The notes below the pieces were generated by a model. It worked only from the letters and a program-made list of their open reading frames with translations. It had not been told where the DNA came from and did no database searches. A DNA stretch of 64,000 nt from an uncultured Actinomycetota bacterium (GTDB taxonomy: Bacteria > Actinomycetota > Actinomycetes > Mycobacteriales > Mycobacteriaceae), in contig CAVWEO010000001.1 in the NCBI GenBank assembly GCA_963753995.1, positions 4,341-68,340 of the forward strand, written 5' to 3'. Shown in pieces: positions 12,356 to 30,883 of the stretch; position 1 is the first letter of the stretch; every line of letters begins with the position of its first letter. A program made the position numbers and the translations under genes.

Positions 12356-13135
12356 ATGACACCTCGGTTGGCCCAGCGGGTCGCGATCGTGACCGGCGGG
12401 GCCTCCGGCTTCGGACGGGCCACCGCCTTGCTCTTCGCCGAACAGGGCGCGCGTGTGGTGCTCGGCGACCTCGACACCGAGCACGGTGCGCAGGTCGTCG
12501 CCGAAATCGTTGCCGCCGGCGGCCAAGCGGAGTTCGTGCACGGCGACGTGAGCGATGCCGCCGTTGCCGAGCGACTGGTGAACACCGCCGTGTCGCGCTT
12601 CGGCGCAGTGGACGTGCTGGTCAACAATGCCGGCATCGCACAAGACCCGCGCGAGGAGTCCTGGAACGCCGCCGAGGACATGTGGGACCGCATCATCCGG
12701 GTCAATCTCCGAAGCGTGTACGTCTGCACTCGGGCCGCGGTGCCGACCATGCAATCGGCCGGCCGCGGCGCCATCGTGAACATCGCGTCGATCGCGGCGA
12801 CCGTCAGCACCGGTGGCTCGGCCTACGCGGCCTCGAAAGGGGGCATGCTCAGCTACAGCCGGCACATCGCCGTCGAGCTGGCACCGGTCGTTCGGGTCAA
12901 CTGCGTGTCCCCCGGCTTCATGCGCACACCGATGTCGACCGGAGAACGACGCGGCGTCCCCCAAGACGCCCAGGAACGGCGCATGGCGGATTTCGCCACC
13001 TGGAATCCGATGCGGCGCGCGGGGGCGGCCGCCGACATAGCCAACGCAGCGCTGTACCTCGCCAGCGACGAGTCAGCGTTCGTCACCGGCCAGCAGATCG
13101 TCGTGGACGGCGGGCACCTGGTCTTCTCGCACTAG
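12356..13135 (+). CDS. SDR family oxidoreductase
   Basis: TGGASGFG, NNAG, YAASK. Confidence 0.93.
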   Translation: MTPRLAQRVAIVTGGASGFGRATALLFAEQGARVVLGDLDTEHGAQVVAEIVAAGGQAEFVHGDVSDAAVAERLVNTAVSRFGAVDVLVNNAGIAQDPREESWNAAEDMWDRIIRVNLRSVYVCTRAAVPTMQSAGRGAIVNIASIAATVSTGGSAYAASKGGMLSYSRHIAVELAPVVRVNCVSPGFMRTPMSTGERRGVPQDAQERRMADFATWNPMRRAGAAADIANAALYLASDESAFVTGQQIVVDGGHLVFSH

Positions 13136-13164
13136 TGGACTGTGCTCGCGACGGGCCCGAGCGA

Positions 13165-13216
13165 ACGGCCCGACCTGACGGCCCGACCTGACGGCCCGAC
13201 CTGATGGCCCGACCTA
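13165..13216 (+). repeat. 13-bp tandem repeat ACGGCCCGACCTG x4 between convergent genes
   Basis: Exact units at 13165, 13178 and 13191; variant ATGGCCCGACCTA at 13204 contains the BVMO stop; degenerate copy at 13151. Confidence 0.9.
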
Positions 13217-14827
13217 GCGGCACAGGGCGAACCCCTCGTACCCGCGGCGCGCGACGCCATCGCAGAGCTCTCGATACGGTCCCACGCCACCGACGTAAGC
13301 CATGAACGTCGCCGGCTTGCCCGGGATGTTCGCGCCCAGATACCAGGAGTTGGCACGTGGGAACAGTGTCTGGGCAGCAGCATCGGCGACGTGTCGACCC
13401 CAGGCCTGCTCGGCGGCGGGACGGGCCTCGGCGGTAGCGACATTGTGCCGGCGCATGAAGGTGAGCAGGTCCGCGATCCAGTCGACGTGCTGCTCGATCG
13501 AGACAATCATGTTCGACAGCACCGACGGGCTGCCCGGCCCGGTGATGGTGAACATGTTCGGGAAACCGCTGATCGCCAGGCCGAGATACGCGCGCGGACC
13601 GTGTGCCCACGCCTCGCGCAGGCTGTAGCCGCCGCAGCCGGTGATGTCCATCCGAAGCAGCGGTCCGGTAACAGCGTCGAACCCGGTCGCGAAGATCAGC
13701 ACGTCGAGGTCGTAGTCGTCTCTACTCGTGCGGATGCCGCGGCCGGTGATCTGCACCAGCGGCTCGCTGCGCAGGTCGACCACGCGCACGTGCGGCAGGT
13801 TGAACGTCTCGTAGAAACCGGAGTCCAGGCAGATTCGCTTGGCCCCGATGGGGTAGTCGAGCGGCGTCAACCGTTCTCGCACGGCCGGGTCGCGCACGGC
13901 GGCGCCGATCTTCCCGCGCACGAAGTCGGCCACGATCACATTCGCCGCCTCGTCGGTCATGGTGTCGCTGAACTCGCGCAACACTCCGGCGCCACCGCGT
14001 CGCCAGGCGGCCTCGAGTATCGCGGTGCGCTGCTCGGCCGGTAGCTCGAACGCCGATCGGGGCGTCACCCCCGGCTCGGACAGCCCGATCCTGGATTGCC
14101 GTTGTACCGAACGATGATGCGCGTATTCGCGTTTCCAGCCTGCCTCGTAATCCGGTGGCATCGGGGTGTTCCGGGCCGGCACGCTGAATTGCGGGGTGCG
14201 CTGGAAGACGTGCAGCCGGGCCGCCAACGGCGCGACGGCCGTGATGACCTGCACACCGGTCGAACCGGTGCCGATCACACCGACCCGCTTGCCGGCCAGT
14301 TCCACCTGGTCGGCCGGCCACGATGCGGTGTGGTAGCTCGCGCCTTCGAATGAATCGCCGCCGTCGATGTCCGGCACGTTGACCGCAGACAGGCAGCCGG
14401 CCGCAGTGACCAGAAACCGTGCCGACACGCTTTCGTTGCGCTGCGTCGTGACGTGCCAGCACCGGCGACGTTCGTCGAAGCGCGCAGCCACCACCCGAGT
14501 GTCGAACTCGATGTCAGGGCGCAGGTTGAATCGGTCTGCCACATGGCGGATGTAGTCGAGAAGCTCCGGCTGGGCCGCGTACCGCTCGCTCCAATGCCAG
14601 CGCTGCTCGAGATCGGATGAGAAGGAATACGAATACTGCATGCTCTCCACGTCGACGCGAGCCCCCGGGTACCGGTTCCAATACCACGTACCGCCTACGT
14701 CGCCACCGGCCTCGAAAACCCGCACCCGGAACCCTGCCGTTCGCAGGCGATGCAGCGCATACATGCCGGCGAACCCGGCACCGACAACGATCACGTCCAG
14801 ACCGTCGGGATCTGAGTCCGACCTCAC
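13214..14827 (-). CDS. Type I Baeyer-Villiger monooxygenase (CHMO/PAMO-like)
   Basis: GAGFAG, GGTWYWNRYPGARVD, fingerprint FEGASYHTASWP, GTGSTG, KRICLD, ATGFD. Confidence 0.93.
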   Translation of the reverse strand: MRSDSDPDGLDVIVVGAGFAGMYALHRLRTAGFRVRVFEAGGDVGGTWYWNRYPGARVDVESMQYSYSFSSDLEQRWHWSERYAAQPELLDYIRHVADRFNLRPDIEFDTRVVAARFDERRRCWHVTTQRNESVSARFLVTAAGCLSAVNVPDIDGGDSFEGASYHTASWPADQVELAGKRVGVIGTGSTGVQVITAVAPLAARLHVFQRTPQFSVPARNTPMPPDYEAGWKREYAHHRSVQRQSRIGLSEPGVTPRSAFELPAEQRTAILEAAWRRGGAGVLREFSDTMTDEAANVIVADFVRGKIGAAVRDPAVRERLTPLDYPIGAKRICLDSGFYETFNLPHVRVVDLRSEPLVQITGRGIRTSRDDYDLDVLIFATGFDAVTGPLLRMDITGCGGYSLREAWAHGPRAYLGLAISGFPNMFTITGPGSPSVLSNMIVSIEQHVDWIADLLTFMRRHNVATAEARPAAEQAWGRHVADAAAQTLFPRANSWYLGANIPGKPATFMAYVGGVGPYRELCDGVARRGYEGFALCR

Positions 14828-14887
14828 CTTGGCCAGAGTACTTCCGGACGAGGTCGTCTCCGATCGTGGTCGGGCGCGCGGTGCCGC

Positions 14888-15481
14888 TCATCGACGGGGA
14901 CGCCTGAGCCAACCATCGCTAGTCCCGGACCAGTGGTAGTGGCACGGCTGCCACCAGAGGCACCTCGAGAACGCAAAGGCAGCACCACATGCACATCGGC
15001 GGCACGCCATCGTGGTTGCACCGAACGCTGCGCAACAGCGACTCGACCCGCATTCGGTACCAACGAGATCGAATGACTTCCAGCGGGCCTTGGTGAACCA
15101 GGACCGTGCGTCGGCTATACACGATGCAACTTCCTCGTCCGCGCCAGCGCAAGAGCCCTGCCGGGCATATTCGAGCGGCCCGGTGCCCGCGCGAGTGCAG
15201 ACAACCGTCAGTCCGCTCTCGGTGTCGGTCAACCAGTCGCCGACGCTAACACCCACATCCGAGGCCTCGTTGTCAGCGAAAGGCGCGCTACACGGAACGG
15301 GAGGTACTTCGACCATGAGGTGACCCGCACAGGTCAGTCGTCCCGGCGCACATGGTGTTTGGATCACGGTGACGCGAACGGTGTCGTCACCAGTACCCAG
15401 GGTCTGAAAGCGATGCAACGTCGCCGCGCTGTGGTGCGACGCACCAGATGTTTCGACCCCGGCATATATCACTGCAGCCAT
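14888..15481 (-). CDS. Small uncharacterised Cys-containing protein
   Basis: Core VTVIQTP..LTCAGHLM..DTESGLTVVCTRAGTGPL resembles a roughly 100-aa hypothetical family I recall from actinobacterial lipid-catabolic clusters. It has its own promoter and operator. The C-terminal part is doubtful. Confidence 0.5.
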   Translation of the reverse strand: MAAVIYAGVETSGASHHSAATLHRFQTLGTGDDTVRVTVIQTPCAPGRLTCAGHLMVEVPPVPCSAPFADNEASDVGVSVGDWLTDTESGLTVVCTRAGTGPLEYARQGSCAGADEEVASCIADARSWFTKARWKSFDLVGTECGSSRCCAAFGATTMACRRCACGAAFAFSRCLWWQPCHYHWSGTSDGWLRRPRR

Positions 15482-15514
15482 CCGCACTCTCCGAGCATCA
15501 CGACCCTCAAGTCA

Positions 15515-15557
15515 AGCCTAAGTTGCCACCAACACGAGCGTCAACATGAAAGTTGAC
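15515..15557 (-). promoter_or_regulatory. Promoter TTGACG-N18-TAGGCT with perfect operator GTCAAC-ATGAAA-GTTGAC (15540-15557)
   Basis: Read directly from the sequence. Confidence 0.75.
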
Positions 15558-15561
15558 ATGA

Positions 15562-16878
15562 CTACCCGGCGGCCGTGAACAGCTGAATGAGCAGGGTGAG
15601 GTTGAGCGCGGTAATGGCAACGGTGACGACGACCATCGCGGCTTTGGTCATTGGGCCGTTCGTCATCTCGGCCATCACCCTGCGATCGTTCGAGACGATC
15701 GCCAATGGCACCAGCGCAAACGGAATCCCGAACGACAGGACGATCTGGGAGACGACGAGGGCCTGACTCGTGTTCGATGTCGTCGCGAGCACCACAAGGG
15801 CAGGCACGATCGTGATCAGACGGCGGGCGAAGATGCTGAATCGCCAACCCGTAAAGCCGCTCATGACCACCTGGCCGGAGTAGGTGCCGACGCTCGCCGA
15901 GGCAAGCCCGGATGCGATCAAGGACACCGCAAACGCGAGGGCCGCGCCGCCGCCGACCAGCTGACCGATCCTGCTGTGGATTTGATCGAGGCCAACCGAA
16001 CCATTCGTGCGCGCGCCCGCGAAGACCGACGCTCCGATGCACAGCATGGCCAGGTTGATGGCCCCAGCCGCTCCGAGGCCGATGACACAGTCCCAGCGAT
16101 TCGCACGCAGCAGCGTCCGGCGCTCGCCGCGGCCAACGGCCGTGATGCGGGCTTGGTGCAATGCAGAATGTGCATAGATCGCGTGCGGCATGACGGTTGC
16201 ACCCACGATGCCGACCGCAAGCTGCAAGGCGCCGGCGTCAGAAATGTGCGGAACGAGCCCGTTACCCAGATGCGCGAAATCCTTGTGGTCGACAGAGGCA
16301 AAATCGTAGACGATTCCGGCGGCCAACAACATCAACAGCGCGACAATTGCCAATTCGAATGGGCGATAGCCTCGCTGGCGCAAACTCAGCACGCTGAACG
16401 CCGCGGCGGCGGAGACGACACCGGCTGCAAACAGCGGCATGCCGAACAGCAAATGTAGGCCGATCGCAGCGCCCACGATCTCGGCAAGGTCGGTCGCCAT
16501 AGCGACAATCTCGGCCTGTCCCCACAACAGGAGATTGGCGCGCCGATCGAACCGGGTTCGGCAGAGTTCGGGCAACGTGCGGCCGGTGGCAAGGCCGACC
16601 TTGCCTGAGACGTACTGCACCAGCATGCCAACGATGTTGGCCAAGACGATCACCCAGGCCAGCTCGTACCCGTATCGGGCACCCCCGGTGAAGTTGGTTG
16701 CGAAGTTGCCCGGGTCCACGTAAGCGACTGCGGCCACAAATGCCGGACCGAGCAGGCCGACGGCGAAACGCACTCGGCCACGCCGCCGCAGCTCGAGGAG
16801 ATCGGTGCTCAGCAGGGGGATGACAGGTCCCAGCAAAGCCGAGCTCTCTGCAGAACCTCCCTCCGGAGCGTCATCCAA
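15562..16878 (-). CDS. mntH: Nramp-family divalent metal (Mn/Fe) transporter
   Basis: YVDPGNF (TM1), GATVMPH (TM6), GTYSGQVVMSGF, SQIVLSFGIPF. Confidence 0.93.
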   Translation of the reverse strand: MDDAPEGGSAESSALLGPVIPLLSTDLLELRRRGRVRFAVGLLGPAFVAAVAYVDPGNFATNFTGGARYGYELAWVIVLANIVGMLVQYVSGKVGLATGRTLPELCRTRFDRRANLLLWGQAEIVAMATDLAEIVGAAIGLHLLFGMPLFAAGVVSAAAAFSVLSLRQRGYRPFELAIVALLMLLAAGIVYDFASVDHKDFAHLGNGLVPHISDAGALQLAVGIVGATVMPHAIYAHSALHQARITAVGRGERRTLLRANRWDCVIGLGAAGAINLAMLCIGASVFAGARTNGSVGLDQIHSRIGQLVGGGAALAFAVSLIASGLASASVGTYSGQVVMSGFTGWRFSIFARRLITIVPALVVLATTSNTSQALVVSQIVLSFGIPFALVPLAIVSNDRRVMAEMTNGPMTKAAMVVVTVAITALNLTLLIQLFTAAG

Positions 16879-16964
16879 TCAAGACCCTTTCAACACGATG
16901 CCGTGTTGGCTGGCGCCAACGATGAACCGAGGTGAGCGGCGACCGTGTTCGCCGACCGACCAGG

Positions 16965-17324
16965 TCAGGACGAGCCTCGGGGCCCCACCAGCACGCGGTC
17001 GCCTTCGACGGAGACGTCGTAACTGGCGACACGGAACCGAGGATCGCTGGTGCACTGACCGTCCCGGAGCGAATACCCCCAGGTGTGCCAGGGACACAGC
17101 AGCGCAGGGTTGCCCGGATCGACCGTGACCGGCCCGTCCGGATCGGCGCAACTGAGCTGAGGGCGGACCACGCCGGACATGAAGGACTGGCCTTGATGCG
17201 GGCAGATGTTGCGCAGCGCGAAGATCTCGTCACCGGTCTGGACCAGAACGATTTCGCGACCGTCGACGGTCACGACAATAGGTTCGTCCGGCCGGAGATC
17301 GGACGTCGAGCACGCGAACTGCAT
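16965..17324 (-). CDS. Rieske [2Fe-2S] ferredoxin with a long inter-motif loop
   Basis: CPH-x33-CPWH; start ATG 17324. Confidence 0.9.
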   Translation of the reverse strand: MQFACSTSDLRPDEPIVVTVDGREIVLVQTGDEIFALRNICPHQGQSFMSGVVRPQLSCADPDGPVTVDPGNPALLCPWHTWGYSLRDGQCTSDPRFRVASYDVSVEGDRVLVGPRGSS

Positions 17325-17329
17325 TCCCC

Positions 17330-18475
17330 TCACCCAGCCGCAGCCACTGGCGTCGCATTCCGTCCCGCGGCCGGGGCCGTCGGCGGGGTCCAGCCGTACC
17401 ACTCGCACGCGTTGTCGCACAGGACCTTGCTCGTCCACGACTTGGGCAGCATCCGCGCTACGTATGAAGGGTCGTCGAAGGAGATGTGCGGATAGTCGCT
17501 GGAGTAGCACAGCAAGTCCTCCATGCCGTCGACAGCGGCAAAGAAGTCCGGCACTTCGCGCGGCGTGCGGCCCACCTCGATCGGCTGGGTCGAGAACTTG
17601 ATGTGGTCACGGACGTACTCGCTCGGCCACTTCTTGACCCACGTCGATTCGAGGCGGAAGGAGTCGTAGTACTGGTCCATCCGCCACAGCATCGACGGTA
17701 TCCACGCGACGCCGTACTCCTTGATGATGATCCGCAGGTCAGGATACTTCTCGAACACGCCGTTGACGATGAAGCTGCTGACGAAGTGCTGGGCCTGCTG
17801 CGTCTGCAGCGAAATCGTCTCTGAGGTGGTCATCATCGGCGACGGCGTGGTACGGGCGGTCACCTTCGGCCGCTCGGCGGCGGCCTGGTGGATGCTCAGG
17901 ACCAGACCCATCTCCACGGCCGCTTCGTAGATCTTGTGATAGACGGGGTGGCCGAAGGGCTTTCCGAGCGGGCTCCCCACCAGGAGCACGCCGTCCATCT
18001 GCGGATGGCCGCCGACGCGCCTGATCTCGGCCGCCGCCTCATCGGGCGTCGCCATCGGGGACACGATCAGGCCCCGCAACCGCTCGTCGCGTGCCAGCCA
18101 GTAGTCGATGGTCCAGTTGTTCGCGGCCGTGCAGACCGCAGCCGACAGCTCGGGATTGGACAGCAGTGCATATTCGCCGATGTCGTGCGTCAGCACTGCC
18201 CGGAAGTAGTTGCACGGGTCGAGAAGCTTGTCACGCAGCATCTCGTAACTTGATCCTGGGAAGTACCCGTCATCGCCGAAGGTGTCAGCACGCCGGGCCG
18301 CATTGTTGAGAACCGGCGAAGCAAGCACATTCGGTGGATCCAGCACCGGACTCGAGTGCGGATCAGCGGTCACCAGTTCCCGGGCGAAGCTCGGCAGGTA
18401 GTCGATGATCTCCCACACCGATTTCGGGCGGTTGTGGACATCGACGTCGACGACCGGTCCGGTGTAAGCGGCCAT
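17330..18475 (-). CDS. Amidohydrolase-fold protein with intact metal ligands; probable catalytic subunit of a dinuclear monooxygenase
   Basis: DVDVH, SIHQ, KEYG, STQPIE, YSSDYPH..DDP; lies just before the Rieske gene. The fold call is firm, the function is inferred. Confidence 0.85.
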   Translation of the reverse strand: MAAYTGPVVDVDVHNRPKSVWEIIDYLPSFARELVTADPHSSPVLDPPNVLASPVLNNAARRADTFGDDGYFPGSSYEMLRDKLLDPCNYFRAVLTHDIGEYALLSNPELSAAVCTAANNWTIDYWLARDERLRGLIVSPMATPDEAAAEIRRVGGHPQMDGVLLVGSPLGKPFGHPVYHKIYEAAVEMGLVLSIHQAAAERPKVTARTTPSPMMTTSETISLQTQQAQHFVSSFIVNGVFEKYPDLRIIIKEYGVAWIPSMLWRMDQYYDSFRLESTWVKKWPSEYVRDHIKFSTQPIEVGRTPREVPDFFAAVDGMEDLLCYSSDYPHISFDDPSYVARMLPKSWTSKVLCDNACEWYGWTPPTAPAAGRNATPVAAAG

Positions 18476-18524
18476 GTTGTGCTCCCTAGGGTGAGCGGTG
18501 ATACCTCTATTAGTGTGTTCCCAC

Positions 18525-19643
18525 TTAGAGCGAGAACAAAGCTTTTGCGTTGTCGTAGAAGACGCGGGTGTGCCAATCCGCCGGGATCCGGGCGCTGAGG
18601 GTGTCGACATCCTCGGCATCACGAAGCGGGTAGCCGCTGGTGAAGGTGATCATGTCGCCGAGCTCGGGGTATGAGGCGAACATGGCGGTCAGCTCACCGG
18701 GGTTGCGCGGGCTCTCCATGGCTCCGGTACTGAGCCGCACATGATCGTGCATGTACTCGCTCGGCAGTCTCGTCATCCAAGGCACCTCGTGCGGGTTCAT
18801 CCGGTACCAATAGTCGAGCCGCCAGGAGTAGGCCGGCAGCCACGCCACGCCTCCGCCGACACACAGCACGCGCAGGTTCGGGTGGCGGTCGAAGACGCCT
18901 TCCATGATGAGGCTGGCCACGTGCGCCATGAGTGTGTGCCCGGCGTGCGATGCGTATTCGGCGTACGTCGCCGGCAGCCCACCCGCGGTCGGGCTGCTGT
19001 CCAGCGAGGAGATCGCGTCGCTGCCCACTTGGATCACGATCGGCAGGTTCAGCTCTGCCGCGGCCTCGTATATCTCGTGATACGCAGAATGACCAAAAGC
19101 TCTGCCCAGCCCGTTCGCTCCCATCGCCACGCCGACCATCCGCGGATTCCTACCGAACTCCCTGATGTCAGCTGCGGCCGTACGTGGCGCGGCGCTGGTG
19201 ACCAGAACGAGTGCCCGCAACCGGTCATCGCGCGGCAACCACTGCTCGATGGTCCAACGGTTCGCCGCCCGGGTGACCGCGCGGGCCATGACGTAGTGGT
19301 TGACTCCAGTCGTCCGCAGCGCTTCGGAGTAACCCAGCACCGCATACTCGCGGCCCTCGACCGCCTGACGCACCACGACATCCACGTCCGACGCCGGCGG
19401 CGCCCCGCCTTCATAAGAGGCCTCTGAGGCGTAGCCCTTCGGATCCTTGTACAACCAGCCGGCCTTCATGGTCAGCGGTCCGGCCTTGTCGCCCGGACGC
19501 AGGATGACCTCGCGCCACCCCGGCTCGAGGTAGTCTGCTAGCGCCGTCGTGGACGGCCATTCGTGGAACAGGCACGCGTCGATGGTTGGGCCCGCATAGG
19601 CCTTACCGACTTCACCGACCTTGGCTACCGACAGGGTTGCCAT
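18525..19643 (-). CDS. Amidohydrolase-fold protein with degenerate metal site; probable partner subunit
   Basis: Collinear with its neighbour, but DACLFH, IQVG, VGGG and TSGYPL replace the ligand motifs. ATG 19643 follows AGGAGG. Confidence 0.85.
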   Translation of the reverse strand: MATLSVAKVGEVGKAYAGPTIDACLFHEWPSTTALADYLEPGWREVILRPGDKAGPLTMKAGWLYKDPKGYASEASYEGGAPPASDVDVVVRQAVEGREYAVLGYSEALRTTGVNHYVMARAVTRAANRWTIEQWLPRDDRLRALVLVTSAAPRTAAADIREFGRNPRMVGVAMGANGLGRAFGHSAYHEIYEAAAELNLPIVIQVGSDAISSLDSSPTAGGLPATYAEYASHAGHTLMAHVASLIMEGVFDRHPNLRVLCVGGGVAWLPAYSWRLDYWYRMNPHEVPWMTRLPSEYMHDHVRLSTGAMESPRNPGELTAMFASYPELGDMITFTSGYPLRDAEDVDTLSARIPADWHTRVFYDNAKALFSL

Positions 19644-19677
19644 AGCTGTACCTCCTGGTTTCCGACTAGCACCATGA

Positions 19678-20862
19678 TCAGCCCCGCGCGGCTTCGGACG
19701 CGAGCACGATCGCGGCGTGCGATTTGAGCGGGCTGCCGGAGTTGGCCATCGTGACCTCGACCGGGCGACGCAACTGCCGTTCGCCGCACACACCCTGGAT
19801 CTGCCGAACGGCCTCGATCACCTGCGGAGTCCCGTGCAGCCGCCCCATCCCGAGCATGCCACCGGACGTGTTGACCGGCACCGCGCCGTCACGCGCCGTC
19901 TCGCCGTCCGCGACGAATCTGAAAGCCTCGCCCTGCTTGCAGAATCCGAAGGCCTCCAGCCAGATGTAGACGAAGTAGCTGAAACCGTCGTAGATATTGA
20001 CTTGATCCACATCAGCCGGCCCGAGTCCGGCGGAGCGCCAGAGCTCGTCGGCGATGTAGCGCGAGCTGCGTTCCATGCTCTCCAACGTCATGACGGACGC
20101 GTTTTCCAGGTTCATCCCGATCGACGCGCCCCCGCGCACGTACGCCGCCGGGTGCGGGGCATCGGCCGCCCGCGCCGCCGACGTGACGATCACCGCACCG
20201 GCTCCGTCGACCGGCATGTCGCAGTCGAGCATCGACAACGGATCGGCGATGGGACGGGTGTTCAGGTAGTCCTCGACGGTCAGCGGCTTGCCGCGGAACA
20301 CCGCCTCCGGATTCAGCTGGGTGTTCGCGCGGTTGCGCACCACGTATTCGGCCATGTGCTCGCGCCGTGCGCCGTAGCGCGCCATGTACCGCGAGTAGGG
20401 CAATGCGTAGTCCATCACCGTGTTCGCCAGCCCGAACGGTGCGCGGAACTGCTCCGGACCGGCTGCTTGCGTCAGTTCGTAACGTCCGTACTTGCCGGCC
20501 GGATTGTGCATGGCCCGCCAGACCACGACGGTCGAGCAGGCGCCGGCTGCTACCGCGTGTGCCGCCTCCAACACCGCGCCGACGTAGGACCCCGGCTGCA
20601 GCTGAGCACACCAACGCAACCCGTCCAGACGCAGCGCGCGAGCCACGTAGCCCGCACCGACGAAGTCCATGCCGTCTTGATCGCCGGCGCCCAACCTCGA
20701 CGGTGCGGGATAGACGCACAGGCCGTCGACGTCGGAAACGCGCAGCCCGGCGTCGTCCAGAGCCCGCGTGATTGCCTGGGTGGCGAGGGCACCAAGCCCA
20801 ACGTTGCCGCGCCGGGAAATGTCGGAGAACGCGGCACCGACGATGGCGGCGGCCGCGGTCAT
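19678..20862 (-). CDS. Thiolase-superfamily protein (Ltp2/SCP2-like, no evident catalytic Cys)
   Basis: LDCDMPVDGAGA, IYDGFS, NTSGGMLGMGRLHG; overlaps the DUF35 gene. Confidence 0.87.
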   Translation of the reverse strand: MTAAAAIVGAAFSDISRRGNVGLGALATQAITRALDDAGLRVSDVDGLCVYPAPSRLGAGDQDGMDFVGAGYVARALRLDGLRWCAQLQPGSYVGAVLEAAHAVAAGACSTVVVWRAMHNPAGKYGRYELTQAAGPEQFRAPFGLANTVMDYALPYSRYMARYGARREHMAEYVVRNRANTQLNPEAVFRGKPLTVEDYLNTRPIADPLSMLDCDMPVDGAGAVIVTSAARAADAPHPAAYVRGGASIGMNLENASVMTLESMERSSRYIADELWRSAGLGPADVDQVNIYDGFSYFVYIWLEAFGFCKQGEAFRFVADGETARDGAVPVNTSGGMLGMGRLHGTPQVIEAVRQIQGVCGERQLRRPVEVTMANSGSPLKSHAAIVLASEAARG

Positions 20863-21296
20863 CGCGCGCCGTCGGCGGGAGTGAACTGCGCGAGCGTGAT
20901 GTCGCCGGTGAGCGGTTCGAACGCGACCTCGACCGCCACGCCGACCAAGGCCTGGCCAGTACGGCCGGGTGCGCCGACTAGGTTGCCGAGCAGGTAGATA
21001 CCCGGCGCGTCATCGAGTTCGACGGACACGCAGGTATACGGCGTCCGGTCCTCGAAGCCATACACCCTGGCCTCGTGCATCGTCGTTGCCTCATGCACCA
21101 CGCCGCGGCCGGACACGGCAAGCCATCCCAGCTCGAGCGAGAGGCAGCTCAGGCACTGCGGGGCCGGCGGGTGCTGCACCGATCCGCACGACGAGCAGCG
21201 TTGCACCACGAGTTCGCCGCGCCGCGTCGCGGCCCAGAACGGCGCGGTCAGCTCGTCGATCACGGGCATTGGACGGGTGGGCTTTGTGTCAATCAT
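20859..21296 (-). CDS. DUF35 Zn-ribbon/OB-fold protein (ChsH2-like)
   Basis: PFW..GELVVQRCSSCG..HPP..CLSC, SGRG, VEVAFE. Confidence 0.9.
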   Translation of the reverse strand: MIDTKPTRPMPVIDELTAPFWAATRRGELVVQRCSSCGSVQHPPAPQCLSCLSLELGWLAVSGRGVVHEATTMHEARVYGFEDRTPYTCVSVELDDAPGIYLLGNLVGAPGRTGQALVGVAVEVAFEPLTGDITLAQFTPADGAR

Positions 21297-22527
21297 GCAG
21301 ACCCGCCGCAACACCCGAGTCCGCCGTGACATCAGCGGACGAGGAAGCGCCGCTGTCCTGGCCCAGCCAGTCGTGCAGAACCGACTCTCGGTCCGCGTCG
21401 ACGGCGTGCCCGGCGTTGCGGACGGCGCCGGGCGTACGGGAGAACTTCGGAATCACCGACTGCATGCGCAGCGGCCCGAGGTCGTCGTCCTCGACGGTGA
21501 CGATGTTCCGCCGGGCCTGGTACTGCGGATGCTCGAAGATGTCGGCGATGCTCATCACCGGCGAGAACGGCACGTCGTGCTCGGCGAACCGGCGCACGAC
21601 GTCGTCCATGGTCTGAGCCAGCAGCCAGCCGGAGAGGATGGTGTTGAGTTCGTCCCGATTGCGGATGCGAGCCTGATTGGTCTCGAACCGAAGGTCGTCG
21701 ATCAAGTCCGCCATGCCGATCGCCCGGAACAACCGCTCGACCACGACCTGCGTGCTTCCGGTGAACGACAGCCATTTTCCGTCGGCGGTTTTCCAGGTGC
21801 CGACCGGCGACACGTACGGGACCTCGGTGCCTGTTCGCTCGATCACGGTGCCGAGTTGGTCGTAGGCGACCACCAAAAATTCCATCAGCCGGAAAGGCGT
21901 CTCGTACAGGCCCAGATCCAGGTGCTGACCGACGTGTCGTGGGTTGCGGTCACGTTCGTAGATCGCGGCAAGGATGCCGGCGGCGCCGAGCACGCCGGTG
22001 ACCTCGTCCGCGATCGGGAAGCCGCTGTGCAATGGCGCGCGGTCCGGGAACCCGGTGATGTAGGCCATGCCGCTGAACGCCTCAGCCGTGCGACCGAAGC
22101 CGCGGCCGGCGCTGAGCGGGCCGTCCGACCCGTATGCCGACACGCTGAGCATGATGAGTCCCGGATTGGCGGCCGACAACGTCTCGTAGGAAAGCCCGAG
22201 CCGAGCCATGGTGCCGGGGACGAAGTTCTCGACCACGACGTCGGCCGTCGCGACGAGACCGAGGAAGGTGTCGCGGTCCGCGTCGGTCTTGAGGTCCAGC
22301 GCAATGGTGCGCTTATTCCGGCCGTTCACCTTGTACCAGAGCGGGACGCCGTCCTTGTGCGGGGCGAGCTTGCGAATCGGATCGCCCCGCGGGTGTTCGA
22401 CCTTGACCACGTCGGCGCCGTAGTCGGCGAGCAGGGTGGCTGCCGCCGACGCGGACACCATCTGCCCAAGGTCAATCACGCGCAGTCCCACCAGGGCTCC
22501 GGTGCGTGCCTGCGCTTGGCCGTTCAT
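21289..22527 (-). CDS. Family III (CaiB/BaiF) CoA-transferase
   Basis: LADYGADVVKVEHP, GRNKR, DVVVENFVPG, IADEVTG. Confidence 0.92.
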   Translation of the reverse strand: MNGQAQARTGALVGLRVIDLGQMVSASAAATLLADYGADVVKVEHPRGDPIRKLAPHKDGVPLWYKVNGRNKRTIALDLKTDADRDTFLGLVATADVVVENFVPGTMARLGLSYETLSAANPGLIMLSVSAYGSDGPLSAGRGFGRTAEAFSGMAYITGFPDRAPLHSGFPIADEVTGVLGAAGILAAIYERDRNPRHVGQHLDLGLYETPFRLMEFLVVAYDQLGTVIERTGTEVPYVSPVGTWKTADGKWLSFTGSTQVVVERLFRAIGMADLIDDLRFETNQARIRNRDELNTILSGWLLAQTMDDVVRRFAEHDVPFSPVMSIADIFEHPQYQARRNIVTVEDDDLGPLRMQSVIPKFSRTPGAVRNAGHAVDADRESVLHDWLGQDSGASSSADVTADSGVAAGLHD

Positions 22528-22686
22528 CCGAACCACCGGTACTGCTGGAGTGCGTACCCAGGCATCGGGCTCGCGGCGCTGTCCGGTCCGCGCGACGCGC
22601 TCGTCCGGCCCTTCACAGCAGCGATTCTCCTCGTTGTTTCGGGCGCGTGAGCCGCTACCCCGATCGTCGCACAGGCCACGGCGGGA

Positions 22687-22704
22687 GTCAACACATCAGT
22701 TGAC
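22687..22704. promoter_or_regulatory. Perfect operator GTCAAC-ACATCA-GTTGAC upstream of the CoA-transferase to Nramp operon
   Basis: Intergenic, read directly. Confidence 0.78.
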
Positions 22705-22731
22705 AACGATTTCCCGCAGCCGCCACGCAGC

Positions 22732-24579
22732 TCACGATGTCGGCTGCGATGGATCACCCTGCTGGCCAGGCGCAGCATTCGCGGTTGCCAAATCACGCGA
22801 CTTCGACGGCGTCGGCCGCGCCTGACGCAGATCGGCGGTGATCTGCAGAGCGAGATAGCGGGAATACAACCGAGAGTCGATCAGCGAGCCCCCCATCAGC
22901 CACAGCCCTTCCTGGGCTGTGCGCTGCCACATGTTGCGCATAATGTGGTTCTCGTCGAATCCCCAGATCGGCCCGACCTTGTTCGCGATCTCGTCGCCGA
23001 GCAGACGACGGATCCCCTCCTGCTGGTTCTCGAAGCCGGTGGCCAGCACCACGAGATCGGCGGCAATCAGCCTGCCGTCGCGCATGCGCAGCCCATCCGC
23101 CGTAAAGGCCTTCATGTCCCGGGCCTGAACCAGGCCGATCTTGCCGTCGGCAATCAGGTCGGAGCAGCCGACATTGATGTAGTACCCGCCGCCCCGGCGC
23201 AGATATTTCATGTAAAAGCCGGTTGCGTCCGGCTCGAAGTCCGTCTCGAAACCAACCGCGTTGAGCTGGTCCAGCAGCGGTTTGTCCAGTTCGCACGTCC
23301 GCTTCGTGACCCATTGGCTGGATTCGACGAACAACGGATACGGGGCCGATGTCATGATCAGATCCGAGTCGTCGGCCGAGCGGCCCTCCGAATAGAGCGC
23401 GTACACCATCGTGCCGCTGGGCACGAGGCTCACCACGCATGTCGGGCTGCGTTGCACCATGGTCACCGTCGCGCCGTTCGCGTGGAGCTCTTGGGCAACG
23501 TCATGGGCGCTGTTGCCGGTCCCCACCACGATGGCCGTGCGCCCTCGGTAGGCCTCACCACTTCGGAACTCGCTCGAATGAACGACGTCCCCACTGAAAT
23601 CCCGCAAGCCGGCCAGCGCGGGGATGTTAGGCACGCCGCTGACCCCACCGGTTGCCAACACCAGGTGCGGCGCCGCCAGGTGCGACATCGTACCCTCGCG
23701 GACGATCTCCACCTGCCAGGTGCGCGACTGACTGTCGTAGCGCGCACCGGTCATCTCGGTATCGGTCCACACGTTGAGTTCCATGAACTCGACGTAGGAC
23801 TCGAGCCAGCCGGCCAGCTTGTCCTTCGGCATGAAGGTTGGCCAGGTCTCCGGGAACGGGAGATAGGGCATGTGATTGGCCCACACCTCGTTGTGCAGGG
23901 TTAGCGAGTGATACCGGTGGCGCCAGTTGTCGCCGACCCTGTGGTTCCTCTCGATGACGAGGCAGTCGACGCCCATGTGCCGCAGCCGGGCGGCCAGGAC
24001 GAGGCCGCTGTGCCCCCCGCCGACGATCAGCACCTCGGGCTGCCGGTCGATGAACTCTGCCTCACGCCGTCGTTCGTCGAGCCAGTTGTCACCCGCGAAG
24101 CGATTCGAATACTCCTCGCCCGTCGGCCGTCGAGGCCCGATCCGCTCCTCAGCTCCGTATAGCTCCTGCAGCGTGGTGAGCATGATCCACCCGCGCGGTC
24201 GATCCCAATCGCCGTCCTCAGACACCAGCCGTACGAACGCGGTGCATCGTCCGATCTTGATGTCGAAGTCGAAGAATGCTTCGACAACGTCACGGGCCGA
24301 GCGTCGCGTCAGCCGCGGCTCTGATCGCCCCTGACTCGGGCGAACCGAGGAGGGCAGCACATCGCCCTGAAGCTCCGCCCACCTCCGCTGCAACTCGGCA
24401 CGACCGTGGAACGTTCGATACGACCACGTGAACGCCAGGACGTCCTTCCAGTAGCAGTCCTCGACGAAGAGTCCGCCGAGCGCGACTTGATCTCCCGACT
24501 CGATGGCATCGTGCAGCGCCGCCAGCCACGTGGCGAACACCTCCGACGCCGTATGCGTCCGATCGAACCTCGCAGTCAC
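22732..24579 (-). CDS. Flavin-containing monooxygenase with N-terminal NTF2/SnoaL-like extension (type II FMO-like)
   Basis: YWKDVLAFTW N-terminal domain, GGGHSG, GDNWRHRY, FSGDVVHSSEF, GTGNSAHD, ATGF. Probable GTG start at 24579. Confidence 0.88.
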   Translation of the reverse strand: MTARFDRTHTASEVFATWLAALHDAIESGDQVALGGLFVEDCYWKDVLAFTWSYRTFHGRAELQRRWAELQGDVLPSSVRPSQGRSEPRLTRRSARDVVEAFFDFDIKIGRCTAFVRLVSEDGDWDRPRGWIMLTTLQELYGAEERIGPRRPTGEEYSNRFAGDNWLDERRREAEFIDRQPEVLIVGGGHSGLVLAARLRHMGVDCLVIERNHRVGDNWRHRYHSLTLHNEVWANHMPYLPFPETWPTFMPKDKLAGWLESYVEFMELNVWTDTEMTGARYDSQSRTWQVEIVREGTMSHLAAPHLVLATGGVSGVPNIPALAGLRDFSGDVVHSSEFRSGEAYRGRTAIVVGTGNSAHDVAQELHANGATVTMVQRSPTCVVSLVPSGTMVYALYSEGRSADDSDLIMTSAPYPLFVESSQWVTKRTCELDKPLLDQLNAVGFETDFEPDATGFYMKYLRRGGGYYINVGCSDLIADGKIGLVQARDMKAFTADGLRMRDGRLIAADLVVLATGFENQQEGIRRLLGDEIANKVGPIWGFDENHIMRNMWQRTAQEGLWLMGGSLIDSRLYSRYLALQITADLRQARPTPSKSRDLATANAAPGQQGDPSQPTS

Positions 24580-24657
24580 TCCGACCCTTTTCCAGAGCAC
24601 CGATGGCCTGACGACTGGTCAGGCACAGCAGAAGTGAACACGAAAATGATGTAGTGT

Positions 24658-24675
24658 GTCAACGTCAATGTTGAT
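24658..24675. promoter_or_regulatory. Operator GTCAAC-GTCAAT-GTTGAT upstream of the FMO
   Basis: Intergenic, one mismatch. Confidence 0.7.
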
Positions 24676-24696
24676 GCCCGGACGGTGATCGCCGCC

Positions 24697-25368
24697 TCAG
24701 TTCGAGCGCTTCAGCCAGCCGGGCTGCGGCACCTGTAGACCATCGAGGATGAGGTTGGCAAGGCCCTGGCCGATCGTCTCGGCCGAAAGCGGACCACCAG
24801 GGTGATACCAGAGGCGGGTCGAAACCAGCATCCCGATGATGCTGTTGGCCACCACACTGGGCGGAAGCTCGCTCGCCAGCTCGCCCTCCGCGAACGCCTG
24901 CGCGACGATCGCCCGAAACACCGCGAAGTACTGCTCGGACTGATGCAGCGTCTTGGCCCAGGCGTCGGACGAGCTGCGCCGCCGGCGCAGCCGATCCAGG
25001 TCCTCCTGCACGAACACGTAGAGGAACGGGTAGTGGCGCTCGAAGGAGAGCATCAGCCGGCTGATCAACTGCGACAACCGCTCCCGGGCAGCTAGATCCG
25101 CCGCGCTCAACTCCTCCGCGTCCGCGAGGTTCGCACCGACCGCGGTGGCGACAACGTCGCGGAAAAGATCGTCCTTGGAGCCGACGTAGTAGTACAGAGA
25201 GGCTCGGTCGAGCCCGACGCGTTCCGCGACATCACTGAGCTTGGTCGCGTGGAAACCTTGCTCCTGAAACACCTCGCCGGCCGCCTTGTGGATTTCCCGC
25301 TGGCGCTCCAGGTACACCGGGCTGTCGGTCTTCGCAGCGGCTGCCCGCCTCGCTCGGATGTTGCTCAT
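24697..25368 (-). CDS. TetR-family regulator (copy A)
   Basis: GFHATKLSDVAERVGLDRASLYYYVGSKDDL HTH, WYHPGGPLS C-terminus. ATG 25368 (or 25374) follows GGAGGAGG. Confidence 0.92.
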   Translation of the reverse strand: MSNIRARRAAAAKTDSPVYLERQREIHKAAGEVFQEQGFHATKLSDVAERVGLDRASLYYYVGSKDDLFRDVVATAVGANLADAEELSAADLAARERLSQLISRLMLSFERHYPFLYVFVQEDLDRLRRRRSSSDAWAKTLHQSEQYFAVFRAIVAQAFAEGELASELPPSVVANSIIGMLVSTRLWYHPGGPLSAETIGQGLANLILDGLQVPQPGWLKRSN

Positions 25369-25467
25369 CGACATCCTCCTCCTCCGCTCGGCGGGCACGC
25401 CACCGCAGATGCTGAAGCAGCAGTATCGCTGCCGGCGGGGCGACTTGCCCACATCTGCGTTGATTCG

Positions 25468-25485
25468 ATCAACAACGTCGTTGAG
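25468..25485. promoter_or_regulatory. Operator ATCAAC-AACGTC-GTTGAG in the tetR/MFS divergent region
   Basis: TCAAC-N6-GTTGA core intact, outer bases differ. Confidence 0.62.
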
Positions 25486-25559
25486 ACAATAGGCGCCCAG
25501 AGTTATCGACTCAACTATTTGCTTGTACGCAATCAACTGCTTGCCCTACGCTCGCTGCG

Positions 25560-26957
25560 ATGTCCGCACCGGGGCAACCCGCACCTTCGACGACGCTGAC
25601 GCTGACCGCGCGCCAGCGCTGGCTCGTCCTCGGCGTGGCCGGTGCCGCGCTGATGATGACGGCGATCGACCAGACGATCGTTGCCACGGCCCTGCCCAAC
25701 ATCCAGCACCAGTTGCATGCCCGTCTCAACATCGTCGGCTGGACCATCACCATCTACGCACTCGGCTGCGCGACGACGTATCCGGTCATCGGCAGGGTGG
25801 TCGATCGGGTCGGCAGCCGATTGGTCTTTCTCGTCGCAATCACGGTCTTCGCGATCGCCTCCGTGTGTTGCGGGATGTCGACGAACATTTACGAGCTGAT
25901 CGCGTTCCGGGCGCTGCAGGCCATCGGCGGCGCCGCGGTGATGCCGTCATCGACGAAGATCGTCGCCTTGACGTTCGGCACCAGCCGGGACCGAGCCCTC
26001 GGCTCCTTCATCGCGATCTTCTCGGTCGGCTCGGTGTCAGGTCCGATCATCGGCGGCCTGCTCATCGACTATGGCTCGTGGCGCGACATATTCTTCGTGA
26101 ACATTCCGATCGCGGTGGCGCTCTTCGCCGCGGCATGGTTCGTTCTGCCCGCGACGCCGATCGGCCCGCGCCGACCGTTCGACATTCGCGGGCTGTGGCT
26201 ACTCGCACTGGCAGTGCTCGCGGCGATGTTCGGGGTCGCCCACCTCGGCGAACCAGGCGCCCAGCTGTGGGACCCGCTGACGATCGGGCCGTTCCTCATC
26301 GCGGCGGTCGCCGTCCCTACCCTGACCCGGCACATCCGTCGGGTGCCTGAACCGTTCGTCCCCCCGCAGATGCTGTTCGGGCGCGATTTCCGCACCATGA
26401 ACTTCCTCAATTTGGTCTACGGCGCCTCGACGTCGGGTTTCGGCGCACTGGTTCCGCTCTACGCGATCACCCGGTTCCACATCGCCTATCTGGCGGCGGG
26501 CACGCTGCTTACGGCGCGCGCCGTGGGCAGCATCGTGGTCGGGGCGGCGGCGGTCGCGCTGCTTCGCCGCACCGGTTACCGCAAGCCCATCGTCGTCGGC
26601 TTGCTGATCATCGCCGTCGGGCAGGCCGGGATCGCCCTGTGCCCGTCGGCCGGCGTCGCCTACGTCTGGCTCAGCGTCGCGGCAGGCCTGTCCGGAATCG
26701 GCATGGGCGCCGCGAACCCGGCGGTGAACAACGCCTGCCTGCACCTGATGCCGGACGACACGGCATCGGTTGCCGCGTTGCGCGCCATGTTTCGCCAGAT
26801 CGGCGCAATCTCCGCGGTTTCCCTCGCGACCGCGATCGCCGCGCCCAGCAGCGACCCGGGCCGCGCCCAGGCATTCGTGTTCATGGCCTTCGCGGTTTCC
26901 CTGCTCGCGCTGATCCCGCTAGTGCGCCGGGTGCCGGAGCATCGCGGGGCATGGTGA
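25560..26957 (+). CDS. MFS transporter, DHA2/EmrB-like
   Basis: DQTIVATALP, GRVVDRVGSR, RALQAIGG, WRDIFFVNIP. Confidence 0.9.
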   Translation: MSAPGQPAPSTTLTLTARQRWLVLGVAGAALMMTAIDQTIVATALPNIQHQLHARLNIVGWTITIYALGCATTYPVIGRVVDRVGSRLVFLVAITVFAIASVCCGMSTNIYELIAFRALQAIGGAAVMPSSTKIVALTFGTSRDRALGSFIAIFSVGSVSGPIIGGLLIDYGSWRDIFFVNIPIAVALFAAAWFVLPATPIGPRRPFDIRGLWLLALAVLAAMFGVAHLGEPGAQLWDPLTIGPFLIAAVAVPTLTRHIRRVPEPFVPPQMLFGRDFRTMNFLNLVYGASTSGFGALVPLYAITRFHIAYLAAGTLLTARAVGSIVVGAAAVALLRRTGYRKPIVVGLLIIAVGQAGIALCPSAGVAYVWLSVAAGLSGIGMGAANPAVNNACLHLMPDDTASVAALRAMFRQIGAISAVSLATAIAAPSSDPGRAQAFVFMAFAVSLLALIPLVRRVPEHRGAW

Positions 26958-29637: not shown

Positions 29638-29698
29638 CGCCCATAGACGGACCAGCGACGGATCAGAGAACGCAATGCCTGCAGAAGGAGTCGGTGAC

Positions 29699-30883
29699 GT
29701 GAGTCCTGACATCAAGATCGTTTCCCCCGATGATCACCTGATGGAGCCGCCGCATCTGTGGGTGTCCCGCCTGCCGGCGCGCTACCACGACGTGGGGCCA
29801 CGCGTCGTACGTACCCGAGGACGGACGGACACCGATTCGACGGAGTTCAAGTTCGTCGAGGACGACGAGGGAAAACCGGCAGACCTGTGGTTGTACGAAG
29901 ACGTCAAGATGGCGATACCGCTGATCAGCGCGGCTGCTGGATACGACCTCGACGACCTCAACACGGATCCGATCACTTTCGACGAGATGCGACCGGGCTG
30001 CTACGAACCAAAGGCGCGGGTCCAGGATATGGAGGCTGCAGGTATTGAGGCCTCCGCCTGTTTTCCGAACAACTTCGTGCGGTTCTGTGGGCAGCGCTTC
30101 CTGTTCGGCAAGGACAAGGACCTCGCGAAGCTCTGCGTCGAGGCGTACAACGACTTCCAGATCGACGAGTGGTGCGGCGATTCGGACGGCCGGCTGATTC
30201 CGCTCGGCATCATCCCGTTGTGGGACGTCGAGCTGGCCGTGCAGGAGGTCCACCGCACCGCGAATCGCGGCATGCACGCGATGTGCTTCTCCGAGTTGCC
30301 CGCGCGACTGAAGTTGCCGTCTATCCATAGCGGTTACTGGGACCCGTTCTTCGCCGCGTGTGAGGAAACCCAGACCGCCATTCAGATGCACATCGGGTCG
30401 AGTTCGTCCTTCACCAAGTCCTCCGAGGATGCGCCGCACGTCGTCACCAGCACGACGATGGCGGTGAACTGCACCATTGCTATGGTCGACTGGCTCTTCT
30501 CCGGCAAGCTGATGGAGTTTCCGCGCCTCAAGATCGCCTTCGCCGAAGCTCAGGCCGGTTGGATCCCCTACTACTTGCAGCGGGCAGACGAGGTGTGGGA
30601 AAGCCGGCGCTCCTGGGGCGGCATCCACCCGCTGATCAAGGAGCCACCGAGCACGCAGGTTCCCGGCCGGGTCTTCTACTCCACCTTCGGCGATCCCGTC
30701 GCGTTCCGCCTTCTTGACCTGGTCGGCGAGGATCAGCTCATGTTCGAAACCGACTACCCGCACAACGACACCAACTGGCCGAACAGCCTCGAGGTCGCGA
30801 ACAAGGCCACGGCGGGCCTAGACGAAGAAACGAAGCGCAAGGTCCTGTCGACGAATGCCAAGGTGCTGTTCGGCATCGCCTGA
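29699..30883 (+). CDS. Amidohydrolase-fold protein (Amidohydro_2, PtmU3-like)
   Basis: SPDDHLMEPPHLW, MHIGS, FAEAQAGWIP, FETDYPHND. GTG 29699 follows AGGAG. Confidence 0.88.
   Translation: MSPDIKIVSPDDHLMEPPHLWVSRLPARYHDVGPRVVRTRGRTDTDSTEFKFVEDDEGKPADLWLYEDVKMAIPLISAAAGYDLDDLNTDPITFDEMRPGCYEPKARVQDMEAAGIEASACFPNNFVRFCGQRFLFGKDKDLAKLCVEAYNDFQIDEWCGDSDGRLIPLGIIPLWDVELAVQEVHRTANRGMHAMCFSELPARLKLPSIHSGYWDPFFAACEETQTAIQMHIGSSSSFTKSSEDAPHVVTSTTMAVNCTIAMVDWLFSGKLMEFPRLKIAFAEAQAGWIPYYLQRADEVWESRRSWGGIHPLIKEPPSTQVPGRVFYSTFGDPVAFRLLDLVGEDQLMFETDYPHNDTNWPNSLEVANKATAGLDEETKRKVLSTNAKVLFGIA

Follow-up and report, generated by a model that had tools for sequence, protein, structure and literature searches.

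We analysed a 64,000-nucleotide stretch from an uncultured Actinomycetota bacterium of the family Mycobacteriaceae (GenBank assembly GCA_963753995.1, contig CAVWEO010000001.1, positions 4,341 to 68,340 of the forward strand), called the window below, and focused on a predicted minus-strand operon at 15562..22527. The operon encodes two paralogous TIM-barrel proteins, AmhA and AmhB, a Rieske ferredoxin, an Nramp transporter, and three proteins of coenzyme A (CoA) chemistry. Taken together, the evidence makes it rather likely that these genes encode a multicomponent, O2-dependent C-H hydroxylase of the amidohydrolase-related dinuclear oxygenase (ARO) type. AmhB, with six metal ligands, would hold the predicted two-metal site, while AmhA, with none, would have a structural role and stay free of metal, and the Rieske protein would pass on electrons from a reductase with its gene elsewhere. 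All seven genes were identified by family matches and stand in the order CoA-transferase, DUF35, thiolase-like, AmhA, AmhB, Rieske, and Nramp, as given in a preliminary description of this DNA made from its letters and open reading frames (ORFs). The headline of that description, a Mn/Fe hydroxylase pair served by a Rieske protein, is not new, since the family, the Rieske partner, and the Mn/Fe chemistry had already been published; it also missed that AmhA is free of metal ligands and that AmhB departs from the published C-terminal motif.

The predicted catalytic subunit and its ligand-free partner

AROs have been defined as PF04909 TIM-barrel proteins with the motifs D-x-H and D-x-P-H-x-[D/E], six metal ligands, and a dinuclear, O2-dependent cofactor; the family comprises about 17,000 sequences, its linkage to Rieske genes is known, and the D-x-H motif is missing from characterised decarboxylases and hydrolases (Liu et al. 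2026, PMC13154177). Both the Rieske linkage and the mis-annotation of AROs as amidohydrolases have been published (PMC10811679, PMC13154177). Pfam likewise gives only Amidohydro_2 (PF04909) for AmhA and AmhB, the automatic label that the preliminary description had expected.

AmhB (17330..18475, minus strand; PF04909) is the predicted catalytic subunit. It has all six metal ligands (D12, H14, H196, E253, D327, and H330), and its N-terminal D12-V13-H14 reads as D-x-H. The best solved relatives by sequence are 8SM7, 8SM8, 8SM9, SfbO, and AibH2 (E 6e-58 to 7e-44), followed by PtmU3 (E 7e-20) and decarboxylases (1e-11 or weaker). The predicted model of AmhB (predicted local distance difference test, pLDDT, 92) compares best with 8SM7 (Z 45.5, root-mean-square deviation 1.9, 342 aligned), then with SfbO (Z 44.0), AibH2 (Z 43.4), and PtmU3 (Z 32.8), and gives Z values of about 30 with the ACMSD/LigW decarboxylases, to which AmhB is 15-19% identical. 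The comparison with AibH2 and PtmU3, which the preliminary description had proposed as a check, thus upholds its claim of an oxygenase pair rather than hydrolases or decarboxylases: sequence and AmhB fold are nearest to Mn-type AROs, with ACMSD/LigW far weaker.

The six ligands are complete in 114 of 120 AmhB-family proteins, the remaining six being N-terminally truncated. The C-terminal motif of AmhB is D-Y-P-H-I-S, in which Ser332 replaces the motif Asp/Glu, and the same position is Ser (61), Thr (50), or Ala (8) in all 119 homologues. AmhB is ARO-like in its predicted workings, yet it lies outside the 2026 family definition by its C-terminal motif. Screens made earlier with the six ligands or the Rieske neighbourhood as criterion (PMC10401708, PMC10811679) would retain it, so its clade falls outside the 2026 motif census without being wholly invisible.

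AmhA (18525..19643, minus strand; PF04909) is an ARO-fold partner that is predicted to be non-catalytic. By sequence it is also closest to solved AROs (pLDDT of the predicted model 94), and it shares with AmhB a W-R-x-D...E-x-P-W helix motif, but it keeps none of the six ligands, having C24, F26, Q205, G263, G337, and L340 at those positions and reading C-L-F in place of D-x-H. Among its 120 best matches, itself included, 102 have no ligand, 17 have one to three, and one is a canonical ARO; the count of 102 includes N-terminally incomplete rows, and 17 rows are gapped at the first two positions.

The gene for the Rieske [2Fe-2S] ferredoxin (16965..17324, minus strand; 119 amino acids; PF00355, E 4.3e-16) lies 5 bp downstream of AmhB, and the ligand motifs C41-x-H43 and C77-x2-H80 are intact. 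AmhB has a hydrophobic F333 at the position called gamma5, in agreement with the neighbour criterion for Mn-type AROs; an aromatic or hydrophobic gamma5 has been associated with ferredoxin docking (PMC13154177), and the Phe of AmhB fits such docking. With AmhA unable to bind metal and the ferredoxin retained throughout, the working subunit must be AmhB, and the AmhA/AmhB pair is likely of the ARO type with a Rieske ferredoxin, as judged from sequence and models. One point that weighs on the other side is that none of the operon genes encodes an AibF-like reductase; nine Fer2 matches were found in the host genome (66% GC, 67% complete), all on other contigs.

The neighbourhood of AmhB relatives was studied in genomic contigs, where a single-sequence scan with AmhB found no relative and an alignment-based scan did. 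The scans gave 115 related loci. The catalytic gene is near-complete in 103 of them; without the 12 fragments and 4 near-duplicates, 22 loci whose catalytic protein lacks the motif acid (Asp-less loci) and 77 canonical loci remained for comparison. Among those with enough flank, a Rieske gene was adjacent, within 1.8 kb, in 19 of 19 Asp-less loci, bearing out the expected conservation of this linkage, and in 67 of 74 canonical loci. Ligand-poor partners (three ligands or fewer) were present in 17/17 and 21/66 loci, respectively, and partners with no ligand at all in 16 of 18 pairs for Asp-less subunits versus 3 of 26 for Asp-bearing ones.

An IQ-TREE phylogeny (71 hand-picked rows, quick mode, a long-branch outgroup, and support from the Shimodaira-Hasegawa-like approximate likelihood ratio test, SH-aLRT, only) placed the Asp-less catalytic proteins in one clade (SH-aLRT 100), which is weakly supported in a second tree (FastTree, 446 rows) that agrees with the first on the main points. 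This clade lies within a group of canonical AROs (D-Y-P-H-[W/F/Y]-D) whose partners are likewise ligand-poor (SH-aLRT 99), and the ligand-poor partners of the Asp-less clade and of the enclosing canonical group form one clade (SH-aLRT 100). We infer from these sequences a separate duplication followed by stepwise loss, in which the partner site would have been lost first and the catalytic Asp after it. The distribution is patchy, with members in Thermoleophilia, Chloroflexota, Dormibacterota, metagenomes, and Rhodococcus sp. T2V, where the AmhA and AmhB orthologues have consecutive accessions; this strain and Conexibacter sp. CPCC 206217 are carriers in culture. No member was found in 399 genus, 400 family, and 400 order genomes, nor in 400 genomes from the class to which the Conexibacter host belongs, with four candidates scored per genome and one genus genome left unscored. 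A plasmid search gave 66 records, all below 60% identity, the best among the matches listed being about 37%. In the 150 best representatives at 50% identity, a census whose query profile favours the AmhB clade, 11 proteins had six ligands without the Asp, 73 had the Asp, and 43 had three ligands or fewer.

A second, independent Asp-less ARO clade, with D-x-P-H-W-[S/T] and a Glu at gamma2, was seen at L117-L135 and on contig C60 of G000 (L138:3716-6290). It is common in the host genus, most of its members have a partly degenerate partner (17 of 19 rows are paired), and the C60 copy has a Rieske gene. This clade, too, departs from the published motif. At six loci (L002, L003, and L082-L085), two sets of ARO, partner, and Rieske genes, an Asp-less and a canonical one, are oriented towards each other and adjoin a pair of ODP-family metallo-beta-lactamase-fold genes.

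The 2026 counting rule D-x-P-H-x-[D/E] leaves out at least two Rieske-linked clades with six ligands, the AmhB clade and the second, host-genus clade. Our literature search brought up no account of ARO partners devoid of ligands or of catalytic AROs lacking the Asp; it did not extend to figures, to supplementary alignments given as images, to the supplementary files of PMC7782822 and PMC10401708, or to the primary papers on PtmU3 and DitZ.

Cofactor metal, nuclearity and the Nramp gene

The metal of an ARO has been predicted from three residues: the Mn type has a hydrophobic gamma1, a hydrophilic gamma2, and an aromatic gamma4, and the high-potential diiron type (PtmU3 and DitZ) a hydrophilic gamma1, a hydrophobic gamma2, and a non-aromatic gamma4 (PMC13154177). 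AmhB has V13, T96, and I331 at these positions. V13 and T96 align to the Val and Thr of SfbO and are of the Mn type, and gamma4 alone agrees with the diiron type. Among the 119 homologues, typed with an approximate hydrophobicity set, 21 have all three Mn-type residues, 90 the first two only, 1 is of the diiron type, 1 of neither, and 6 lack the N-terminus. With two of the three residues in agreement, we give a Mn/Fe rather than an Fe2 cofactor in AmhB an even chance. The Mn/Fe cofactor named in the preliminary description is in keeping with the rule at gamma1 and gamma2; what speaks against it is that I331 is not aromatic, so that the rule leaves AmhB unassigned.

The Nramp gene (15562..16878, minus strand) matches the NCBIfam model MntH NF001923 at 444 bits (cut-off 430) and carries DPGN and MPH motifs; by model cut-off and motifs, it is an intact predicted MntH. 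It is the second copy in the genome and is only 44-45% identical to the genus-type MntH. In a comparison with the MntH proteins of three genus relatives, it reaches 44-47% identity, and the other MntH of the genome 73-79%. The preliminary description had made it a dedicated Mn importer and had named loss of its linkage in homologous loci as evidence against the proposal. Searches with blastp and tblastn matched it in none of the 115 related loci (60 of which include 4.5 kb or more of flank on either side), which also detracts from a Mn-based system. In clade loci, 218 neighbouring ORFs were called, and Pfam detected no Nramp among the 190 scanned; in four ARO papers, the term Nramp was found in neither the main texts nor the two supplements searched. 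A tentative statement in the same description that the aib cluster encodes an Nramp proved mistaken as far as the cluster table goes, which lists none (PMC7782822, Table 1). In the identity range of the 17 closest AmhB relatives (58-66%), neighbourhoods were sampled only at L079 (66%, 1.7 kb) and L001 (59%), and Nramp linkage in this group rests on an indirect comparison, in which 0 of 11 close-clade contigs of at least 8 kb share a length with contigs of the 119 best Nramp matches and 9 of 11 do so with contigs of AmhA matches. A role as a conserved part of the system is ruled out by the 115 loci and the Nramp-free aib cluster; the gene is a local extra copy of MntH and not a standing component of the oxygenase system. 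It was possibly recruited locally for Mn supply.

The same architecture with a diiron site, in which the Nramp would be a hitch-hiker or a general divalent-metal importer on the island, overlaps with our preferred explanation except for the metal, and we consider it unlikely, though less so than the other alternatives. It would be in line with the non-aromatic gamma4, a position whose loss in SfbO raises the potential by about 40 mV (PMC13154177), with the lack of Nramp in related loci, and with the place of the gene, last in order and after the largest gap (86 bp). However, of 113 homologues that could be scored, 111 have a Mn-type gamma1 and gamma2, the four nearest solved structures are all AROs capable of using Mn, and the genome already has a genus-type MntH, so that the window copy is an extra one. 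A Mn/Fe cofactor, with the Nramp as a locally recruited extra Mn importer, would be as probable as its opposite.

We consider it probable from the conserved residues that the AmhB site is dinuclear and works without the usual second-sphere Asp, on evidence that is split. According to Hibi et al., only binuclear enzymes retain the acidic residue, and they argue that it is necessary for a binuclear site; AibH1, which has the six ligand positions, including the His, without the Asp, binds one metal (PMC7782822). The AibH2 variant D342A, on the other hand, still loads all metals (Powell et al., PMC10401708). Several points tell against a dinuclear AmhB: the argument of Hibi et al. would tie its missing Asp to a mononuclear site, with AibH1 as the example; D342A lowers the activity of AibH2; the published motif is matched by none of the 120 AmhB-family proteins, AmhB included; and conservation of His330 is not diagnostic, as degenerate partners in the host genus keep the same His. 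AmhB could accordingly be imagined with one metal like AibH1, as a mononuclear Fe or Mn barrel oxygenase fed by a free Rieske ferredoxin. This alternative would suit the absence of the Asp in 119 of 119 homologues, the single metal at the same six positions of AibH1, and the retention of a Rieske gene beside a partner without a metal site. We judge it improbable in view of the full metal loading of D342A, the invariance of the six ligands wherever they are present, and the nesting of the clade among canonical AROs.

In a dinuclear AmhB, the partner may make up for the lost residue. Asp342 of AibH2 bonds to Lys282 of AibH1 (review PMC12141560), a position that maps to Tyr278 of AmhA in our alignment (385-residue numbering), and this bulky aromatic side chain may compensate for the absent second-sphere Asp. 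Among Asp-less pairs, 14 of 18 have an aromatic partner residue there, compared with 3 of 26 among Asp pairs. This covariation is suggestive of compensation at the interface, although it may go back to a single evolutionary event. The locus is a natural test of whether the Asp is needed for a dinuclear active site, which Hibi et al. (2021) affirm and D342A answers in part, and of the role of the auxiliary subunit in AibH1H2-like enzymes, as AmhA can have no metal role.

CoA-chemistry genes and the proposed route

The family III CoA-transferase (21289..22527, minus strand; 412 amino acids; PF02515, E 1.7e-109) contains the sequence PIADEVTG, whose Asp we take to be the likely catalytic residue. 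It is followed by a stand-alone DUF35/ChsH2 protein (20859..21296, minus strand; PF12172 and PF01796) with a zinc ribbon, an OB-fold, and two CxxC motifs, likely the partner of the Ltp2/Sal-like thiolase-fold protein encoded next (19678..20862, minus strand; PF22691; best match 6OK1, E 4e-50). The latter keeps the aldolase base Tyr in a Y291-D-G-F motif and has no Cys at the thiolase nucleophile position, for which reason a classical thiolase identity was rejected. It shares with Ltp2 and Sal the base Tyr in Y-D-x-[F/Y], the lack of a nucleophilic Cys, and the DUF35 partner, and differs in the general acid; from these residues, retro-aldol cleavage is plausible.

Of 12 long clade loci, 7 have co-directional CoA-chemistry genes (CoA-transferase, ligase, thiolase-like, or DUF35) no more than 5.5 kb away, compared with 2 of 41 canonical loci and 1 of 15 canonical loci that have a partner (Fisher p 1.5e-4, a value overstated by hand-picked lists, queries partly from clade loci, and non-independent kin). 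The ligase and class I transferase queries were taken from clade loci; with the window queries alone, CoA genes were found at 4 of 13 clade and 0 of 47 canonical loci. L080 repeats the full set of DUF35, CoA-transferase, YDGF thiolase-like protein (52% identical), AmhA, AmhB, and Rieske, L004 has a looser version of this set, and in L079 a thiolase-like gene directly follows the Rieske gene. Other clade loci have oxoprolinase-like, P450, or isochorismatase genes instead, and these differences indicate that the substrates vary.

In the proposed route, the CoA-transferase would activate a branched or cyclic acid, and the oxygenase would install a beta-hydroxyl, replacing the dehydrogenase and hydratase steps. 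The Ltp2-like/DUF35 pair would then split the product in a retro-aldol reaction, giving an acyl-CoA and a carbonyl compound, and a co-regulated Baeyer-Villiger enzyme, described below, would take the carbonyl (ketone) product onward. No acyl-CoA dehydrogenase or hydratase gene was found in the operon, which fits an oxygenase that supplies the beta-hydroxyl, but the regulon encodes such enzymes elsewhere. A number of observations make the route less secure: in five of the 12 long clade loci, no CoA gene of the same direction lies inside the 5.5 kb range, thiolase-like and DUF35 genes occur together in only 2 of 13 clade loci, the window itself is dense in CoA-transferase and thiolase-like genes, the locus comparison has the dependence on queries and kin mentioned above, and both known general acids are missing from the thiolase-like protein (Ltp2 Tyr344 is replaced by Arg, Sal Cys304 by Gly). 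The whole route, from activation to Baeyer-Villiger uptake, is thus put forward tentatively, at somewhat below even chances. As to the preliminary description, its CoA link survives as an enrichment that is not universal, and its retro-aldol step keeps the base Tyr and loses the general acids, with cleavage itself predicted. If the CoA model is true, a Mn-type ARO would act on thioesters and offer a way round blocked beta-oxidation.

The full model of that description, in which a Mn/Fe hydroxylase, its dedicated Nramp, and enzymes for CoA activation and retro-aldol cleavage form one conserved module, would draw on the gene order and tight spacing, the intact Nramp motifs, and the CoA-gene enrichment; we consider it very unlikely, because as a conserved module it is refuted by the absence of Nramp from all 115 loci, and the contig-length comparison, indirect as it is, and the aib cluster table also oppose it. 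An ACMSD/LigW-type decarboxylase or hydrolase with an incidental Rieske gene, for which the bare Amidohydro_2 label and the departure from the ARO C-terminal motif might be cited, is hardly credible and was ruled out by the D-x-H motif, reported absent from characterised decarboxylases and hydrolases (PMC13154177), by Z values of 43-46 with AROs against about 30, and by the Rieske genes in 19 of 19 clade loci.

A wider claim would be that the clade represents a distinct class of TIM-barrel oxygenase, in which a metal-free twin supplies the Asp replacement across subunits for a Mn/Fe site, or the site is mononuclear, and in which CoA thioesters are hydroxylated at a carbon beyond the reach of beta-oxidation and passed to a new YDGF-type aldolase. 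As one joint claim this is a long shot. On this reading, the enzymes would form an oxygenase bypass of beta-oxidation, and the recruited MntH of the operon would give the first hint from genetics that such an enzyme is supplied with Mn.

Regulon, neighbouring genes and comparison with known systems

Along the predicted operon, the junctions are overlaps of 8 and 4 bp followed by gaps of 34, 49, 5, and 86 bp. On the minus strand of 13000-26000, neither a terminator (in a simple scan) nor a promoter of the sigma-70 type was detected. A palindromic operator, GTCAAC-N6-GTTGAC, lies at 22687..22704, 160 bp upstream of the CoA-transferase gene. The preliminary description had placed the operon under this single operator; the palindrome is real and far above chance, but it is one of 13 sites with at most one mismatch in the window (0.13 expected). 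Six perfect copies exist in the genome, five of them on this contig. On the gene map of the window, the sites are intergenic and in most cases precede transporter and CoA-catabolic units, and the regulon, rich in ATP-binding cassette transporters and CoA-catabolic genes, spans 3841-53699 and continues on contig C1 beyond the window and on C2. The operon is one unit of an island-wide regulon, and the operator is not private to it. The exact operator occurred in none of 135 loci searched for it, and a literature search for it gave nothing relevant among the matches listed.

A second perfect copy (15540..15557), 5 bp past the Nramp stop codon, faces a unit with a Baeyer-Villiger-type flavin monooxygenase (13214..14827, minus strand; PtlE-like, E 2.6e-80, below the cut-off), which is likely co-regulated with the operon. 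The roughly 700 bp between this operator and the monooxygenase gene (14830-15540) hold no convincing gene and are possibly a remnant; the ORF 14888-15487 was rejected as a gene, having no family match and a third-position GC content (GC3) of 0.66. Upstream of the operon lie an FMO-like flavoprotein gene (22732..24600, minus strand) with its own operator at 24658 and a TetR regulator gene (24697..25374, minus strand; TetR_N and TetR_C_24), a candidate regulator for the operator. An apparently frameshifted TetR paralogue, about 80% identical to it, was seen at about 59215-59852.

Three further PF04909 genes occur in the window (29675-30883, 39260-40438, and 44840-45697); the first, with D-Y-P-H-N-D, is possibly an ARO of the diiron type. 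A second Rieske ferredoxin gene, standing alone (45700-46047), has its own operator at 46105. The housekeeping-type genes gpgS and folP stand amid transporter genes at the left end of the regulon (4098-5995). A thiolase-like gene (37608-38800) and a CoA-transferase gene (53730-54916) are each apparently split in two, suggesting partial decay of the island or assembly errors.

Compared with the low-potential Mn-type AROs SfbO (8SM6), D3EI84, W7L2Y2, and B6JH23 (8SM7-8SM9; PMC10811679, PMC13154177), AmhB has the same fold (Z 43-46), six ligands, D-V-H, a Thr at gamma2, an aromatic gamma5, an adjacent Rieske ferredoxin gene, and the automatic label 'amidohydrolase'. The known Mn-type enzymes are homo-oligomers with D-x-P-H-aromatic-D, whereas AmhB has D-Y-P-H-I-S, about 30-34% identity to them, and a ligand-free paralogue next door.

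The 2-aminoisobutyrate monooxygenase AibH1H2GF (PMC7782822, PMC10401708) also has two paralogous barrels and a Rieske gene in the same order, with one catalytic and one auxiliary subunit, roles that for AmhB and AmhA are predicted from their genes. However, AibH1 has a mononuclear site with ligands D, H, H, E, and D, and AmhA retains none of six positions; AibH2 has Asp342 where AmhB has Ser332; and the aib cluster, as given in PMC7782822, includes the reductase AibF and an amino-acid permease and no Nramp, CoA-transferase, or DUF35. A near-orthologous aibH1-aibH2 pair was observed in a genome of the host genus (L133, G001:C3:17576-21649; E 1e-211 and 5e-230). In the tree these relatives fall outside the AmhA/AmhB group, so the AmhA/AmhB pair is likely a separate duplication, and orthology to AibH1H2 was rejected.

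PtmU3 (6OMP), a diiron beta-hydroxylase of CoA-ligated diterpenoids, offers an ARO-fold precedent for CoA-thioester substrates (PMC7782822), but it belongs to the high-potential diiron class, has no auxiliary subunit, and is 22% identical to AmhB (Z 32.8). Finally, the steroid side-chain aldolases Ltp2-ChsH2(DUF35) and Sal-Shy(DUF35) (6OK1; PMC12329534) share with the thiolase-like protein of the operon the thiolase fold without a nucleophilic Cys, the base Tyr in Y-D-x-F, and an overlapping gene for a DUF35 partner; they have YDHF or YDCY in contrast to its YDGF, which comes with neither general acid, a stand-alone DUF35 protein, and no MaoC hydratase gene in the operon.

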